Positions 12,340 to 20,040 of a stretch of 64,000 nt of DNA are shown in pieces. Source of the DNA: Dehalococcoidia bacterium (GTDB taxonomy: Bacteria > Chloroflexota > Dehalococcoidia > Plut-88900); contig CBDFLQ010000006.1 of assembly GCA_965249275.1 (NCBI GenBank), positions 736,001 to 800,000 on the forward strand. Reading direction: 5' to 3'. The notes under the pieces were generated by a model, which worked only from the letters and a program-made list of their open reading frames with translations, was not told the DNA's origin and did no database searches. Position numbers and translations under genes: made by a program. The first letter of the stretch is position 1; each line of letters starts with the position of its first letter.

Positions 12340-13704
12340 TTAGGGGCTTGCCATGCTTCGTATCAGGGCTATGGCAAGGTTTACGACATCACCCAACAGG
12401 CCCGAGTCAACGAATTCCAGGGTGTCCTCGGCGGTGTTGACCCGGGAAAGGTCGTCACCGAAGAAGAACACCACGGGTATCTCCACCGACTGGAAGACAA
12501 CGTGGTCGCTGATCAGCCCCTCGGGCTCTCGGCCCGGGGTGATAGTGACTCCAAGCTCCGTACCCAGCCGCAAGACCTCCAGTTGAAACGCCGGCTCTCC
12601 AGCGATAATAGCCCTTTCACCGCTCCCAACATCGTCCAGGTTGATCATAGCAAGCACGCTGCCCGTGTTGTCACCTATGACGTTCGAAACGTATCGCTGG
12701 CTGCCTATGAGGCCGACCTCTTCCCCGCCGAAGGCCACGAATGTCACGTCCACGGCAAGGTCGTCGTCCTTTAGGGCTCGGGCGATGGTGAGCAAGGCTG
12801 CCGTCCCCGACGCATTGTCGTTCGCCCCGACCGACTCGGTGTCCGTATCGTAGTGCGCTCCGACTATAATCGTTGGCGCGCCGGCTATGGAGCCCTTCTT
12901 GGTCGCCACTACGTTGCGGCTCACCCGGTCTTTCGTCTCCACCTTGACCCGTACCCTCACCTCACCCGACTCCATCATCGCCAGAAGGGCCTGACCGTCT
13001 TCCTGGCTTATTGAAAGCGCCGGTATCTGGCCGGCAGTTTGAAGGGTGCCTGCGAAGTTCTCCGGCTCGCTGTTGTATATTATGACCGCCGAAGCGCCCG
13101 CGTCCCGAGCATTGCTGGCTTTAATTTCAAAGTCGGTCTCTCCCCGCCCGATTAGCGCCACGGCCCCGTCCAATCCATCCCCGGGGAAGTCTTCCGGCCT
13201 GCCTAGTCCTGCATCCACCAGCCTCGCTTCCACGTCCCCGAAACCCGTCCGATACATGAACAGCGATTCGATAACTTGCTCATCCTCGCCCATGACCCTC
13301 AGCCAAGGTTCATCACTGCTTATTAGTCTCAGGTCGAAGCCCCTGACCTCTGCCTCGTACCCAAAACTGCTAAGCTCGGCGGCAATGAATTCCGCGGCCG
13401 CAAGCTCTCCGTCCGTCGTAGCATTTCGTTCCGGGTAATCAGAAACTATGGTTTCCACGTATCCATAGGCTATATCACCCAAGTCAGGTGCGAAGGAAAC
13501 AGCGGTGGGCACGTTGACGCCCGGGGCGGAGATGGGGGTCGAGGTAGGAATTGCGATGGTGGGGGTCGGCGTGCCTGTTGTATCAATTGCCTGGGGGGTG
13601 AGTGCCTGCGCCTCAGTAGTTGCAGTGGCATCCCCACCGCCGCCACATGCGGCCGCAACCAGTACTGCCAGCATTGTAGCGGCCAAGATTTTGAATTTGA
13701 TCAT
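12340..13704 (-). CDS. M28 family aminopeptidase lipoprotein with PA domain
   Basis: AAACG lipobox; GAHYD, GANDNASG, GGEEVGLIGS, INLDDVG, SDH; PA motif ALIGRG...GASAVIIYN. Confidence 0.88.
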   Translation of the reverse strand: MIKFKILAATMLAVLVAAACGGGGDATATTEAQALTPQAIDTTGTPTPTIAIPTSTPISAPGVNVPTAVSFAPDLGDIAYGYVETIVSDYPERNATTDGELAAAEFIAAELSSFGYEAEVRGFDLRLISSDEPWLRVMGEDEQVIESLFMYRTGFGDVEARLVDAGLGRPEDFPGDGLDGAVALIGRGETDFEIKASNARDAGASAVIIYNSEPENFAGTLQTAGQIPALSISQEDGQALLAMMESGEVRVRVKVETKDRVSRNVVATKKGSIAGAPTIIVGAHYDTDTESVGANDNASGTAALLTIARALKDDDLAVDVTFVAFGGEEVGLIGSQRYVSNVIGDNTGSVLAMINLDDVGSGERAIIAGEPAFQLEVLRLGTELGVTITPGREPEGLISDHVVFQSVEIPVVFFFGDDLSRVNTAEDTLEFVDSGLLGDVVNLAIALIRSMASP

Positions 13705-13869
13705 CTAAACCTACGTCCTGTGTCCTCTCGGTGGGCACAGTAGAGTTTGGGACTAGCGGGGCTCATAAAACAATAACGTACATACAGTCATTTAGTTGCG
13801 CCCCTCAGCATACAATAATGGGAAACTGCAGTGCAGTTTCCCATTATTTACCTTGCTTAAGTTAGGGAA

Positions 13870-14307
13870 CTATTCCCCCCGACTTGCCGGCCCCCGAGCC
13901 GACTTCTTAGGCGCTCCGGTGTATTTATCATCCGGGAACAGCTCCTCACCGGGAGCCCCGCCCTCGCCGGCCACCGTGCTCATCGGCTCCTCGCCCGCTT
14001 CCATCTTGCGAAGAAACTCTTCGCTCACGAAGAACATTCATATACAGAATCCGTCCCGGGCTATGTCCTCGTGGTGCCTCTCGCAGGGGCAGATCTTCAT
14101 GCGATCCAGATCCGGATCGCCATCTACGATCATTCAGGGACAGTAGCGGTAGCCGAATTTCACCTCGTTCTTGGCTAGCCCCTTCTGCACCTCATCGACG
14201 ATCTCCGGGTCGGAGTAGAACTCGTAGGGTCCCTTCTCCACGTACTTCTCGGACATCTTTACGGCGCCCTTCAGGGCCTGCTCGAAGGTCTTCTTCTTCA
14301 ACCTCAT
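13870..14307 (-). CDS. Ferredoxin:thioredoxin reductase catalytic subunit-like selenoprotein with two Sec (UGA at 14134-14136 and 14038-14040)
   Basis: Read-through gives GYRYCPUMIVDGDPDLDRMKICPCERHHEDIARDGFCIUMFFVS..., matching the FTR CPC..CPC..CxC motifs; SECIS-like hairpin after each UGA; start ATG 14307 or TTG 14301. Confidence 0.88.
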
Positions 14308-14414
14308 TCCTCCTTTGCTCTGGGGCCTGTGGTTCAATTATACCCCACCCCCTCCCTCAAAACCCGTATAATCTGCGTACGCACTCTACCCCTAGCCACT
14401 CACGGGAGGCAGCA

Positions 14415-15290
14415 ATGACCGAGTCCAATCTCTCCAACTGGGGCCGCTGGGGTCCCGACGACCAGATCGGCGTCCTAAACCTTCTACAGGGCCGGGGCCA
14501 TGTCCTCAAGGCCTTCAGCATGGTCAAGGAAGGCAAGATATACAGCCTCGCCGTGCCCCTAGAGAAGGACGGGCCCCAGATGCCCACCTTCCACAAGACC
14601 TGGCGCGTCTCCCACGTCGCCGAGCGCAAGGACCCCGACCTCTCGATCATCGATGACGTCATAGTCATGGAGACTCACTCCGGCACACACATCGACGCCT
14701 TAGGCCACGTCTGGGCCGACGGCCAGTTCTATAACGGATTCTCCTCCGACGAATTCGCCAGCAGCCGGGGAGTTGAACGTACGGGCATTGAGAACGTCCG
14801 CCACATCATCGGGCGGGGCGTGATGCTGGACGTAGCCGCCTATAGGGGCGTAGACCACCTCCAGGAGGCCGAGGCCGTCACCCCGGAAGACCTCGACGGC
14901 GCTGCACAGGCCCAGGGAATCGCCCTCGAACCCGGAGACGTGGTAATGATTCGCACCGGCTGGTATACCCTCTTCGAAAAGGACCGCGCCCGATGGGCCT
15001 CCTCCTTCCCCGGCCCCGATGCCTCCGTCCTCCCCTGGCTGAAGGAGCACGACGTTTGCGCCATCGGCACCGATCACCCAACCTGCGAGCGCAGGATCAA
15101 GGTCGGCAGCCCCGAGGGTGGCCTTCCACTCCACCGCTACGCCCTTAGGGATCTTGGCGTCTACATCCTCGAAAACCTCGACCTGGAGGGCCTAGCCCGG
15201 GACAAGGTCTACGAGTTTCTGTTCATCGGCGCACCCCTTCGCCTGACTCACGCCACCGGTTCCCCCTGGAACCCCCTGGCCATCATATAG
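14415..15290 (+). CDS. Cyclase family protein (kynurenine formamidase-like metal hydrolase), paralog 1
   Basis: [41 protein letters not shown]. Confidence 0.88.
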   Translation: MTESNLSNWGRWGPDDQIGVLNLLQGRGHVLKAFSMVKEGKIYSLAVPLEKDGPQMPTFHKTWRVSHVAERKDPDLSIIDDVIVMETHSGTHIDALGHVWADGQFYNGFSSDEFASSRGVERTGIENVRHIIGRGVMLDVAAYRGVDHLQEAEAVTPEDLDGAAQAQGIALEPGDVVMIRTGWYTLFEKDRARWASSFPGPDASVLPWLKEHDVCAIGTDHPTCERRIKVGSPEGGLPLHRYALRDLGVYILENLDLEGLARDKVYEFLFIGAPLRLTHATGSPWNPLAII

Positions 15291-15302: not shown

Positions 15303-16175
15303 ATGACTAACGAAAAGCTTTCAAACTGGGGCCGCTGGGGCCCCGACGACCAGATAGGGGTCCTGAATCTGCTCCAGAACTCTTCCTCAGTACTTGATGC
15401 TATAAAGCTGGTAAAGAAGGGGGACGTATACAGCCTCGCCGTGCCCCTGGAAAAGGACGGTCCCCAGTTCCCCCTCTTCCACAAGACCTGGCGCGTCTCC
15501 CACTGGCAGCACCTCCACGATCCCGATCTCGACATCATCGACGATGTGATCGCCATGGAAACCCACTCCGGCTCTCACATCGACGGTCTGGGACACTCCT
15601 GGCACGACGGACAGTTCTACAACGGCTTCTCCTCAGACAAGTACGCCAGCAGCCGGGGCGTCGAGCGCCTGGGCATCGAGAATGTGCGCCACATCTTCGG
15701 CCGCGGCGTCATGCTCGACGTCGCAGCCTATAAGGGAGTCGACCACCTCGGCCCCGCCGAGCCCGTCACCGCCGATGACCTGGACAACGTCGCCGCCGCC
15801 CAAGGCGTCGACCTAAAGCCCGGCGACGTGGTTTTGGTCCGCACCGGCTGGTACACCCTCTTCGGTAAGGACCGAGCCCGGTGGGCTACATCATTCCCAG
15901 GCCCCGACGCCTCCGTGCTCCCCTGGCTCAAAGAGCACGACGTGGTAGCCATAGGCACCGACCATCCCGCCTGTGAGCTCTTCGAAAACTTGGAAGAGCC
16001 CGGGGATACACCCCTCCACCGGCACGGCCTCCGGGACCTGGGCGTCTATCTCCTCGAAAACATGGACTTGGAAGAACTGGCCCGGGACAAAGTCTACGAG
16101 TTCCTGTTCGTCGGGACGCCACTGCGCATCACCCATGGCACAGGCTCGCCCTGGAACCCTTTGGCAATAGCATGA
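15303..16175 (+). CDS. Cyclase family protein, paralog 2
   Basis: Same motifs ([11 protein letters not shown]); highly similar tandem copy. Confidence 0.88.
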
Positions 16176-19795: not shown

Positions 19796-19948
19796 GAGGA
19801 CTTTGCTTCAGTCCGCAGTGGGGACGGGGCCGCACGTGCTGTCAAAGATCCGCCTGCGGAGGAAGCCCGTCGAAGTATGAGCGGGGGGCTGGGGTTATTC
19901 AAATAGTCAAAGTGTTGTAACCTGTGACCTCGCAAAGGTCCCATTAGC

Positions 19949-20040
19949 GGAGGGATCGCATAGTGGTCTAGTGCGGGCGCCTGCTAAGCGCTTATCTGGG
20001 GAAACCTGGATCGTGGGTTCGAATCCCACTCCCTCCGCCA
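19949..20040 (+). tRNA. tRNA-Ser(GCT)
   Basis: GGAGGGA/TCCCTCC acceptor stem, GCCA end, CT-GCT-AA anticodon loop, long variable arm, GGTTCGAATCC. Confidence 0.95.

Follow-up and report, generated by a model that had tools for sequence, protein, structure and literature searches.

The window, the 64,000-nt stretch of Dehalococcoidia DNA analysed here, carries on its minus strand a gene that very probably encodes a genuine double selenoprotein of family NF041072. The product is about 143 residues long, with the type of fold found in the catalytic subunit of ferredoxin:thioredoxin reductase (FTR) and in ferredoxin:disulfide reductases (FDR) and, by analogy, their chemistry. It is a well-supported case of a small protein with two selenocysteines (Sec), each of which has an in-frame SECIS of its own. 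A curated model and published work already cover the feature.

The gene and its family

When TGA was translated as U, the minus strand from 14307 to 13870 gave 145 residues followed by the stop codon TAG (13872-13870), confirming the single frame through both UGAs that had been read from the sequence alone. Translation likely starts at the TTG at 14301 rather than at the ATG at 14307, giving a product of 143 instead of 145 residues. In all 12 family-level loci compared, a start at this TTG (GTG in one genome) was kept, 7 nt 3' of an AAGGAGG Shine-Dalgarno sequence, whereas the ATG was seen in the window sequence only. The three motifs in the read-through protein are CPU with U58, C73-P74-C75 and CIU with U90. 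The features of the locus are as follows.

13870..14307, minus strand: ftrB-type double-selenoprotein gene, assigned from the translation, the NF041072 and PF02943 matches, selection and start conservation
14134..14136, minus strand: UGA 1, predicted Sec58 (CPU), aligned with Cys57 of the Synechocystis FTR chain 1dj7_A
14120-14101, minus strand: SECIS-like hairpin 1, GCGATCCG/GATC/TGGATCGC, 13 nt after UGA 1, with G first in the loop
14083..14091, minus strand: middle CPC motif (C73-P74-C75), presumed Cys pair ligating a [4Fe-4S] cluster, aligned with C74 and C76 of 1dj7_A
14038..14040, minus strand: UGA 2, predicted Sec90 (CIU), aligned with Cys87 of 1dj7_A
13998..14035, minus strand: SECIS-like element 2, GCGAAGA/GTT/TCTTCGC (14024-14008) on a lower stem, 13 nt after UGA 2
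13873..13977, minus strand: C-terminal extension past the FTR fold (residues 111-145), delimited by pLDDT and motif conservation
13814..13848, minus strand: inverted repeat AATAATGGGAAACT..AGTTTCCCATTATT, 22 nt past the stop codon, read directly from the sequence

The protein matched NF041072, the curated equivalog model "FtrB family double-selenoprotein", over model positions 1-121 of 121 with 212.3 bits (E = 1.2e-63; curated cut-off 160 bits), and a six-frame search of the genome with the same model gave 202.1 bits for the locus. The score with PF02943 (FeThRed_B) was 74.4 bits against a gathering score of 22 (E = 9e-21). The genome has no FTR-family gene besides that of the window, which is a member of this known, curated family; nothing of substance sets it apart. 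A two-Sec FTR homologue from ocean metagenomes was already described by Zhang & Gladyshev in 2008 (PMC2398784); that homologue and NF041072 share with the window protein the two Sec in CxU motifs, at both redox-active positions. Among 401 sampled Dehalococcoidia genomes, 34 scored above the family cut-off. The sequence-only reading had regarded the double-Sec form as uncommon, a view that the curated NCBIfam equivalog, the 2008 report and the 34 genomes of this class do not support.

No Cys or single-Sec orthologue above the cut-off was found in the 401 + 401 sampled genomes. Single-Sec relatives in the same phylum share the domain but have Sec at just one of these two sites, namely CPU..CPC..CRC (L080), CPC..CPC..CYU together with rubredoxin (L081, L083 and L084) and CPC..CPC..CHU (L042 and L082). 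They would form a selenenylsulfide and not the diselenide proposed for the double-Sec protein, and their scores on NF041072 (38-92 bits) are far under the cut-off. To what is known of the family we add its spread in Dehalococcoidia, its division into two subfamilies whose SECIS registers are shifted, and which of its relatives have Cys or Sec. The Dehalococcoidia with the double-Sec protein are selenoprotein-rich and apparently sponge-associated.

The AF2 model of the read-through protein had a mean pLDDT of 86.8, and the C-terminal extension scored 55-63 compared with at least 87 upstream of it. This extension consists of a ..GE.LFP motif, conserved across subfamilies and the furthest point reached by the NF041072 model, and then a basic tail. 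The inverted repeat past the stop codon is possibly a transcription terminator; a scan of 13600-14500 for promoter and terminator consensus sequences found none, and did not report this repeat either.

The neighbouring genes encode an M28 peptidase, a peptidase MA, two cyclase-family proteins and ThiD. They gave no functional link and, in agreement with the sequence-only reading, include no adjacent variable-subunit or thioredoxin gene. A classical-type FTR-like gene divergently adjoins the double-Sec gene at two of the ten double-Sec loci in which a second frame of this kind was sought, both among the six loci of the sister subfamily. Since it is adjacent at these two double-Sec loci only, we do not consider it a conserved partner.

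Translation of the two UGA codons

Comparison with relatives indicates that both UGAs are translated, each with its own SECIS-like hairpin. The two codons, 96 nt apart, were invariant in 12/12 family-level loci, and all 34 genomes above the family cut-off had exactly two TGAs, at these same codons. Protein conservation continued past both UGAs at every one of the 13 loci above the cut-off (among 41 relatives), and of 16 loci that a scan of the genome collection confirmed as relatives of the query, 13 had the double-Sec state. The pN/pS value was 0.15 upstream of UGA 1, 0.046 between the two UGAs and 0.18 downstream of UGA 2, indicating purifying selection in all three segments. Conservation downstream of the UGAs, a test named beforehand, was therefore upheld. 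In metagenome contigs from four runs, variants between the UGAs were listed at 14041, 14044, 14050, 14053, 14056, 14059 and 14062, all third codon positions, and at 14060 and 14061. Among the variants listed there was none at either TGA, TGC and TGT included. Contigs from two RNA libraries cover both TGAs and the gene apart from 13870-13996 and 14267-14307; because such libraries can hold DNA, we do not take these contigs as proof of transcription.

The GCGA-starting hairpins had been placed exactly 13 nt after each UGA, and their positions (14120-14101 and 14024-14008) were confirmed. Both apical loops begin with G. Element 2 has a further lower stem and therefore spans about 14035-13998. For the window sequence alone, 56-nt folds were not beyond chance when compared with dinucleotide shuffles (z = -1.0 and -0.8). 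None of 300 synonymous recodings was as stable as hairpin 1 of the window, and 13 of 14 sequences fell at or below 4% in this comparison; the window's hairpin 2 was matched in stability by 24% of its recodings. The lower stem GCGA/TCGC of hairpin 1 is invariant, and 18 nt of element 2, AGCGAAGAGTTTCTTCGC, are identical in 12/12 family-level loci despite synonymous change in the flanking codons. Outside the hairpins, 58 of 74 conserved degenerate codons varied synonymously, compared with 0/6 and 1/5 inside, the latter in the hairpin 1 region. In the sister subfamily, the stem of hairpin 2 is shifted by one register with three compensatory pairs. Minimum free energy folds contained the apical hairpin 2 in 18/18 sequences and hairpin 1 in 15/18. 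Judged from the relatives, the hairpins are under selection at the RNA level.

Selenocysteine machinery is present in the genome as selB (369 bits), selA (541 bits) and selD (389 bits), all above their cut-offs, and selD carries an in-frame TGA of its own. This part of the check on the Sec machinery came out in favour of read-through, whereas searches of the assembly, which is 87% complete, did not find the tRNA-Sec: the top matches of the Rfam model were tRNA-Ser, ARAGORN at default settings and two pattern scans gave none, and cmscan gave none near selA, selB and selD. ARAGORN at the 80% threshold made dozens of "SeC" calls, which were judged false and of which many lay on a repeated element. 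In 5/5 complete relatives the Rfam model detected a tRNA-Sec with 66-67 bits, and ARAGORN identified an SeC-type tRNA with anticodon TCA in the three relatives scanned. The 3-kb tRNA-Sec regions of two relatives of the same genus (G001 and G005), which include a thioredoxin gene, had no blastn match in the window's assembly (G000), and therefore a gap in the assembly likely accounts for the tRNA-Sec not being seen.

We consider it extremely unlikely that the two UGAs terminate translation or result from sequencing errors, with three short ORFs or a dead gene at the locus. Translation with table 11 does yield separate ORFs of 67, 31 and 55 aa, and public gene callers split the family, with N-terminal pieces that end in ..CP and one C-terminal piece that starts at M91; the missing tRNA-Sec would also fit. 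However, the same two TGAs in all 34 genomes, purifying selection after each of them, conserved and co-varying hairpins, selA, selB and selD in the genome and the lack of TGA variants among those listed argue against this explanation. It is likewise very unlikely that UGA is read as Cys, Trp or Gly, through a recoded code or a suppressor, instead of as Sec. All-Cys homologues with identical motif spacing exist, so the enzyme would function with Cys in both places, and Cys can enter at UGA via the Sec pathway under selenium scarcity. Against this, TGA is the gene's own stop codon in two relatives (L024 and L035), the relatives have the tRNA-Sec described above, and the constant spacing between each UGA and its hairpin is the signature of SelB-dependent decoding and not of a code change.

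Relationship to FTR and FDR

Sequence comparison places the double selenoprotein among homologues of the FTR catalytic subunit, nearer to the stand-alone ferredoxin:disulfide reductases of bacteria and archaea than to plant-type FTR. The best solved sequence relatives, found with a family profile, were 4tpu, the FDR of M. acetivorans (E = 7e-15), and 7pwe (E = 4e-12). A Foldseek search with the AF2 model listed 12 matches with E < 0.01, of 69 with E <= 10, and these 12 were all FDR or FTR chains; 7pwe, a glutaredoxin/FDR fusion according to its PDB title, came first and 4tpu next.

The FDRs 4tpu and 7pwe (the latter from Desulfotalea psychrophila) have CPC..CPC..CxC motifs with 14- and 12-residue spacers, which are common to the window protein. 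Their third motif, CYC, has no His, like the CIU of the window protein, and they too have no variable subunit. In contrast to these all-Cys enzymes, the window protein has Sec at both redox positions and Ile in place of Tyr. It also lacks an extra redox domain, whereas the two FDRs carry a rubredoxin or glutaredoxin domain, and it differs from them in its C-terminal tail of some 35 residues, which is conserved but was modelled with low confidence.

The classical FTR has the same fold and the same six-position motif, and the expected chemistry would be alike, with a [4Fe-4S] cluster beside a redox-active chalcogen pair. The classical chains share 22-26% identity with the window protein over the aligned columns. 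Between motifs 2 and 3 the window protein has four more spacer residues, and His86 of 1dj7_A corresponds to Ile89, so the CHC motif is absent. The classical FTR host is an oxygenic phototroph, whereas the host here is a Dehalococcoidia bacterium. The FTR variable subunit (PF02941) gave no match at E <= 0.1 in the 87%-complete genome, and was detected in the Synechococcus control.

The UGAs had been proposed to fall on the redox Cys positions of FTR, and the alignment bears this out: Sec58 and Sec90 occupy the places of the redox-active Cys pair, Cys57 and Cys87 of 1dj7_A. We take Cys57-Cys87 of the Synechocystis enzyme to be the redox disulfide, with Cys57 as the exposed redox-active Cys, Cys87 as the cluster-proximal redox Cys and the remaining four Cys as cluster ligands. 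C56, C73, C75 and C88 lie in the columns of these ligands and are invariant in 59/59 aligned sequences, as is the whole CPC middle motif across the alignment. The same assignment of redox pair and cluster ligands was given to a two-Sec GOS read in PMC2398784.

Ile at the third motif is specific to the double-Sec clade. CIU occurred in every double-Sec sequence read, and CIC in none of the 137 all-Cys homologues with three CxC motifs. In these homologues the third-motif residue was His in 45 and another residue in 92 (Tyr 30, Glu 15, Phe 15, Leu 7, Asp 6, Lys 5, Arg 4 and others 10). Sec had been suggested to make the catalytic His dispensable. This idea was not supported, since the 92 homologues without His are all-Cys, and the single-Sec CHU relatives L042 and L082 keep both His and Sec; the check for a correlation between loss of His and presence of Sec, which drew on these same two groups, found no link.

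Proposed chemistry and electron acceptor

Our proposal for the mechanism follows the chemistry of FTR and FDR. Reduced ferredoxin would hand single electrons to the [4Fe-4S] cluster, and the cluster would cleave the adjacent Se-Se bond. Sec58 would be the exposed nucleophile, which attacks the substrate disulfide to form a selenenylsulfide, and Sec90, on the cluster side, would ligate the unique Fe of the one-electron intermediate before resolving the mixed bond. If the FTR mechanism carries over, a diselenide would lie next to an Fe-S cluster. To our knowledge, a redox diselenide has been proposed in one other family of natural proteins, SelL of aquatic animals. SelL is a UxxU selenoprotein with a thioredoxin fold, no Fe-S cluster and eukaryotic SECIS elements. 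Since the genome search detected no variable subunit, the protein probably acts on its own or forms a homodimer, like FDR. We found no protein, 75Se or activity data for any family member in the open-access literature, and it is therefore still well suited to tests of the gain from Sec in Fe-S-mediated disulfide cleavage, of SelB at UGAs 96 nt apart and of co-evolution of coding sequence and SECIS.

By analogy, the acceptor is most likely a protein of thioredoxin or glutaredoxin fold. Natural fusions of the domain to thioredoxin (L056) and to a glutaredoxin-like domain (L080) hint at such a substrate, as does the glutaredoxin fusion named in the title of 7pwe. A canonical thioredoxin (128-129 bits) was present in 5/5 complete relatives, about 115-210 nt from the tRNA-Sec. 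The searches detected no canonical thioredoxin in the window's assembly. Because all five relatives carry the gene at this place, and the regions of G001 and G005 that include it have no blastn match in the assembly, we rejected its absence as a finding.

It is possible, although we do not favour it, that the protein is a real double selenoprotein whose Sec pair serves another low-potential substrate and not thioredoxin. Candidates would be a selenoprotein partner, whose selenenylsulfides would be reduced in a cell rich in selenoproteins, a carrier of NrdH or glutaredoxin type that serves ribonucleotide reductase, or a disulfide or persulfide of low molecular weight. Among solved structures the nearest relatives are FDRs and not FTR, and the FDR of M. 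acetivorans, as described in PMC6262447, reduces an atypical, non-canonical thioredoxin. The fusion partners of the FTR/FDR domain vary among relatives, with thioredoxin in L056, a glutaredoxin-like domain in L080 and rubredoxin in L037, L038, L081, L083 and L084. The genome has a TrxB-like gene (284 bits, under the cut-off of 343) that could serve canonical thioredoxin, and also a UxxC ArsC/Spx-like candidate selenoprotein. Furthermore, PMC13326102 places Dehalococcoidia MAGs among the selenoprotein-richest bacteria, with 46-49 selenoproteins. However, no conserved neighbour points to any substrate, and the canonical thioredoxin of the five complete relatives speaks against another substrate. 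The two explanations differ in the acceptor only, and the present data do not separate them.

We regard as improbable a more specialised role, in which the Sec-Sec pair is more than a quicker counterpart of the Cys pair and makes a two-electron centre of much lower potential with a transient Fe-Se bond, and the enzyme is a dedicated recycler of oxidised selenoproteins instead of a thioredoxin reductase. If this were true, ferredoxin would drive reductions beyond those of the all-Cys FDRs, with selenenylsulfides or diselenides as targets. The fixed double-Sec state, the clade-only Ile and the presence of a single FTR-family gene are in favour of such a role.

The double-Sec gene and its family

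Translation table 11 splits the locus into ORFs of 67, 31 and 55 aa. When TGA was translated as Sec (U), the frame predicted by the sequence-only reading ran through 145 residues to a TAG, with the motifs Y-C-P-U58, C73-P-C75 and C88-I-U90 (numbering from the ATG at 14307). The main features are as follows.

14307..13870, minus: double-Sec FtrB-type gene, read with TGA as U
14136-14134, minus: TGA1 (U58), from translation
14120-14101, minus: hairpin 1 (SECIS1), GCGATCCG/GATC/TGGATCGC, exactly 13 nt after TGA1
14040-14038, minus: TGA2 (U90), from translation
14024-14008, minus: hairpin 2 (SECIS2), GCGAAGA/GTT/TCTTCGC, exactly 13 nt after TGA2
14415-15290 and 15303-16175, plus: cyclase-family (PF04199) genes, tandem paralogues divergent from the ftrB gene

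The read-through protein matched PF02943 (FTR catalytic chain; Pfam) with 74.4 bits and an E value of 9e-21, and NCBIfam model NF041072 with 212.3 bits (curated cut-off 160; E 1.2e-63, all 121 model positions). NF041072 is an equivalog model named FtrB_double_U and described as "FtrB family double-selenoprotein", so a curated model already exists for exactly the double-Sec form inferred from the sequence. The gene is real, neatly supported and already known; it belongs to a curated equivalog family whose first report dates from 2008. The family is listed in a table of a 2022 review (PMC9312934) and in a table of a 2026 review, the latter giving NF041072, motif CxU and 2 Sec (PMC13188914). According to a passage of a 2026 database paper, the selenoprotein-richest bacteria include Dehalococcoidia MAGs with 46-49 selenoproteins (PMC13326102). 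No biochemical study of any member was found in the open-access literature searched, and the chemistry of the family is a testable question. The additions made here are modest: fixation of the double-Sec state, four Cys/Sec states, co-evolution of SECIS and peptide, and His-to-Ile as a clade trait.

In all 12 loci from same-family genomes, a TTG start (GTG in one) stands 7 nt downstream of AAGGAGG, whereas the ATG at 14307 is present in the window only. The TTG at 14301 is probably the true start. An inverted repeat read from the sequence 22 nt past the stop codon suggests a single-gene transcript; the consensus scan called no terminator at this gene. The neighbors (an M28 peptidase, an MA peptidase, the two cyclase-family genes and thiD) offered no functional lead. 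Long antisense ORFs across both PF04199 genes are probably artefacts of high GC content.

Conservation of the read-through frame and Cys/Sec states

A six-frame search found one NF041072 copy with 2 TGA in the window's own genome, G000. Among 41 relatives, 13 exceeded the cut-off, including all 11 same-family genomes, and all had 2 TGA. In an even sample of the class, 34 of 401 genomes passed, each with exactly 2 TGA; in one further genome the gene is split between two contig ends, each piece with 1 TGA, and the next-best matches reached at most 80 bits. About twenty genomes of this sample had FTR-like matches with 1 TGA, at 43-51 bits. Of 401 genomes sampled across the phylum, none but the window's own passed. 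A genome-collection scan gave 16 loci, 13 of them double-Sec, all from Dehalococcoidia or Chloroflexota MAGs, and three all-Cys from other phyla. Within the sample, the double-Sec state is fixed across at least ten Dehalococcoidia families.

Two of the refutation tests set by the sequence-only reading concern conservation downstream of both UGAs and the presence of TGC or TGT at the UGAs. In-frame translations of the relatives were well conserved past both codons. Seven diverged family-level sequences gave pN/pS values of 0.150 upstream of UGA1, 0.046 from UGA1 to UGA2 and 0.184 downstream of UGA2, indicating protein-level purifying selection in all three segments of the read-through frame. 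Among the differences listed for contigs of four public runs, no variant fell at either TGA; those between the UGAs lay at third codon positions (14041, 14044, 14050, 14053, 14056, 14059 and 14062) and at 14060 and 14061. Two contigs from sponge-metagenome RNA libraries, X15 record 13 (14020-14259) and X16 record 18 (14023-14254), cover both TGAs and show 3 and 4 differences, respectively, a weak hint of transcription. Such near-identical contigs (3-4 differences in 232-240 nt) in sponge-labelled libraries also hint at a sponge-associated lineage. Within 13700-14500, contig depth in these two runs was very high at 14429-14482 and 13997-14050, because many related organisms share conserved stretches.

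A representative library yielded 447 proteins at E <= 0.001, none at E <= 1e-30. Among the best 150 of these, 137 had Cys at both ends of all three CxC motifs, and almost all of them shared the spacers of 14 and 12 residues. The other 13 include six N-terminal pieces ending ..CP, one ending ..FCI and one C-terminal piece starting at M91, which are Sec forms cut by gene callers. Reading the relatives' DNA through TGA revealed all four Cys/Sec states. All double-Sec loci read CPU..CPC..CIU. In L080, an FTR-like gene from another Chloroflexota class (G445:C292:2900-3800; NF041072 91.5 bits), Sec occupies just the first site (CPU..CPC..CRC) and a glutaredoxin-like domain is fused at the C-terminus; this gene resembles a step between the all-Cys form and the double-Sec form. 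Sec at the last site only was found in a subfamily of FDRs with a rubredoxin domain (CPC..CPC..CYU; L081, L083, L084) and in a classical-type subfamily (CPC..CPC..CHU; L042, L082).

The sequence-only reading had proposed that Sec might make the His of the third motif unnecessary. This idea did not hold. His was absent from 92 of the 137 all-Cys homologues, and the CHU relatives combine His with Sec, so that Sec does not account for the missing His. The middle residue in the 137 was His in 45, Tyr in 30, Glu and Phe in 15 each, Leu in 7, Asp in 6, Lys in 5, Arg in 4, Ala, Cys, Gln and Trp in 2 each, Thr and Asn in 1 each, and Ile in none. The His-to-Ile change is a trait of the double-Sec clade, not a consequence of Sec.

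A classical-type FTR-like gene (CPC, long insert, CAC, CHC) divergently adjoins the double-Sec gene in 2 of 10 double-Sec loci in which a second FTR-like frame was sought, both among the six loci of a sister subfamily.

820-1263 of L035, minus: divergent classical-type FTR-like gene
near 3600 of L055, minus: divergent classical-type FTR-like gene

SECIS-like hairpins and the Sec machinery

Both stem-loops start 13 nt past their UGA, letter for letter as first described. Their loops begin with G at 20-21 nt past the UGA, which presumably fits the bacterial SECIS model. Fold z-scores were -1.0 for hairpin 1 and -0.8 for hairpin 2 (56-nt windows, dinucleotide shuffles); taken singly, both are within chance on the window sequence. 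Across the 12 family-level loci, codons for conserved amino acids with degenerate coding varied synonymously in 58 of 74 cases outside the hairpins, compared with 1 of 5 inside hairpin 1 and 0 of 6 inside hairpin 2, where AGC GAA GAG TTT CTT CGC is identical in 12/12; because the genomes are kin, this contrast is descriptive and does not amount to a formal test.

In the sister subfamily (L035, L051-L055), a hairpin occupies the equivalent place, shifted by one register, and both members of three base pairs change (A-T/G-C, G-C/A-T and C-G/G-C), which goes together with amino-acid swaps between SEEFLR and SSEFAR. In sequences from many families, the minimum-energy fold contained apical hairpin 2 in 18/18 and hairpin 1 in 15/18. 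Each sequence was also set against 300 synonymous recodings that keep its peptide. In 13 of 14 sequences, SECIS1 matched or exceeded the stability of 96% or more of the recodings, and in the window none of the 300 was equally stable. For SECIS2, just 5 of 15 sequences stood out (no more than 1.3% of recodings); in the window, 24% of recodings were equally stable. The stem of SECIS2 is encoded by a peptide that evolved to do so, and SECIS and peptide co-evolve.

G000 encodes selB (369 bits), selA (541 bits) and selD (389 bits), each above its curated cut-off. An in-frame TGA in selD makes selenophosphate synthetase itself a candidate selenoprotein, and a small ORF is a further candidate.

G000:C2:14217-15140: selD (L020), one in-frame TGA
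G000:C5:411034-411159: ArsC/Spx-like, glutaredoxin-fold ORF (L096), in-frame TGA, U-T-S-C motif near the N-terminus

No tRNA-Sec was found in the G000 assembly (7 contigs, 87% complete). All five complete-chromosome relatives carry one (95 nt, 66-67 bits; ARAGORN type SeC, anticodon TCA, in 3/3 scanned), about 115-210 nt from a canonical thioredoxin gene of 128-129 bits (G001, G004, G005, G007, G010; L070-L074, L097-L099). The 3-kb regions around tRNA-Sec of the same-genus G001 and G005, which include their thioredoxin genes, had no blastn match in G000, explaining the apparent absence of both genes together. The missing tRNA-Sec is likely an assembly gap. The tRNA-Sec model gave a below-threshold match in the window to a tRNA-Ser.

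19948-20037, plus: tRNA-Ser, anticodon GCT

Low-threshold ARAGORN "tRNA-SeC" calls (85 nt) in G000 recur at ten or more places, often with a 77-nt pseudo-"tRNA-Stop" 61 nt further on, and look like a multi-copy repeat or mobile element rather than tRNA genes.

G000 C3:7910-8131, C7:346839-347060, C7:1000339-1000560, C6:56272-56356 and C6:281717-281801: examples of the pseudo-"tRNA-SeC"

Fold and proposed mechanism

The solved sequences that matched the family profile best were 4tpu (E 7e-15), the FDR of M. acetivorans, and 7pwe (E 4e-12), titled a glutaredoxin/ferredoxin disulfide reductase fusion of Desulfotalea psychrophila; classical FTR chains came next at about 1e-5. An AlphaFold2 model from a 59-sequence alignment had a mean pLDDT of 86.8, high to about residue 110 and 55-63 in the tail. 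Foldseek listed 12 matches with E < 0.01, all FDR or FTR chains (69 with E <= 10), and among those listed 7pwe ranked first, followed by 4tpu. In the alignment with FTR chain 1dj7_A, U58 and U90 fell on Cys57 and Cys87, bearing out the placement of the UGAs at the redox pair, while C73/C75 fell on Cys74/Cys76, C88 on Cys85 and I89 on His86.

Of two features that define classical FTR, the double-Sec protein lacks His86, and the variable subunit was not found in G000. Since neither a variable subunit nor a second PF02943 gene was found in G000 (87% complete) and the matches are led by FDRs, the protein is nearest to stand-alone FDRs and is predicted to work like them. Both of its Sec codons, which occupy the places of the redox pair, are translated, Cys is invariant at the four ligand positions, and the fold is FDR-like. 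By analogy with FTR/FDR chemistry, ferredoxin would pass single electrons to the cluster, which would split the adjacent Se-Se bond. Sec58 would attack the substrate disulfide, and Sec90 would bind the unique Fe of the intermediate before resolving the mixed selenenylsulfide.

The acceptor, by the same analogy, is probably a thioredoxin- or glutaredoxin-fold protein. The only thioredoxin-fold genes found in G000 encode exported TlpA-like proteins and the ArsC/Spx-like UxxC candidate; a TrxB-like gene scored 284 bits, below the cut-off of 343. Relatives contain natural fusions to thioredoxin (L056) and to glutaredoxin-like domains (L080 and 7pwe). L056, a contig of a Saccharibacteria MAG, encodes an all-Cys FTR-like domain (CPC..CPC..CHC) with a thioredoxin domain (WCGPC) on its N-terminal side, a natural fusion of enzyme and probable substrate.
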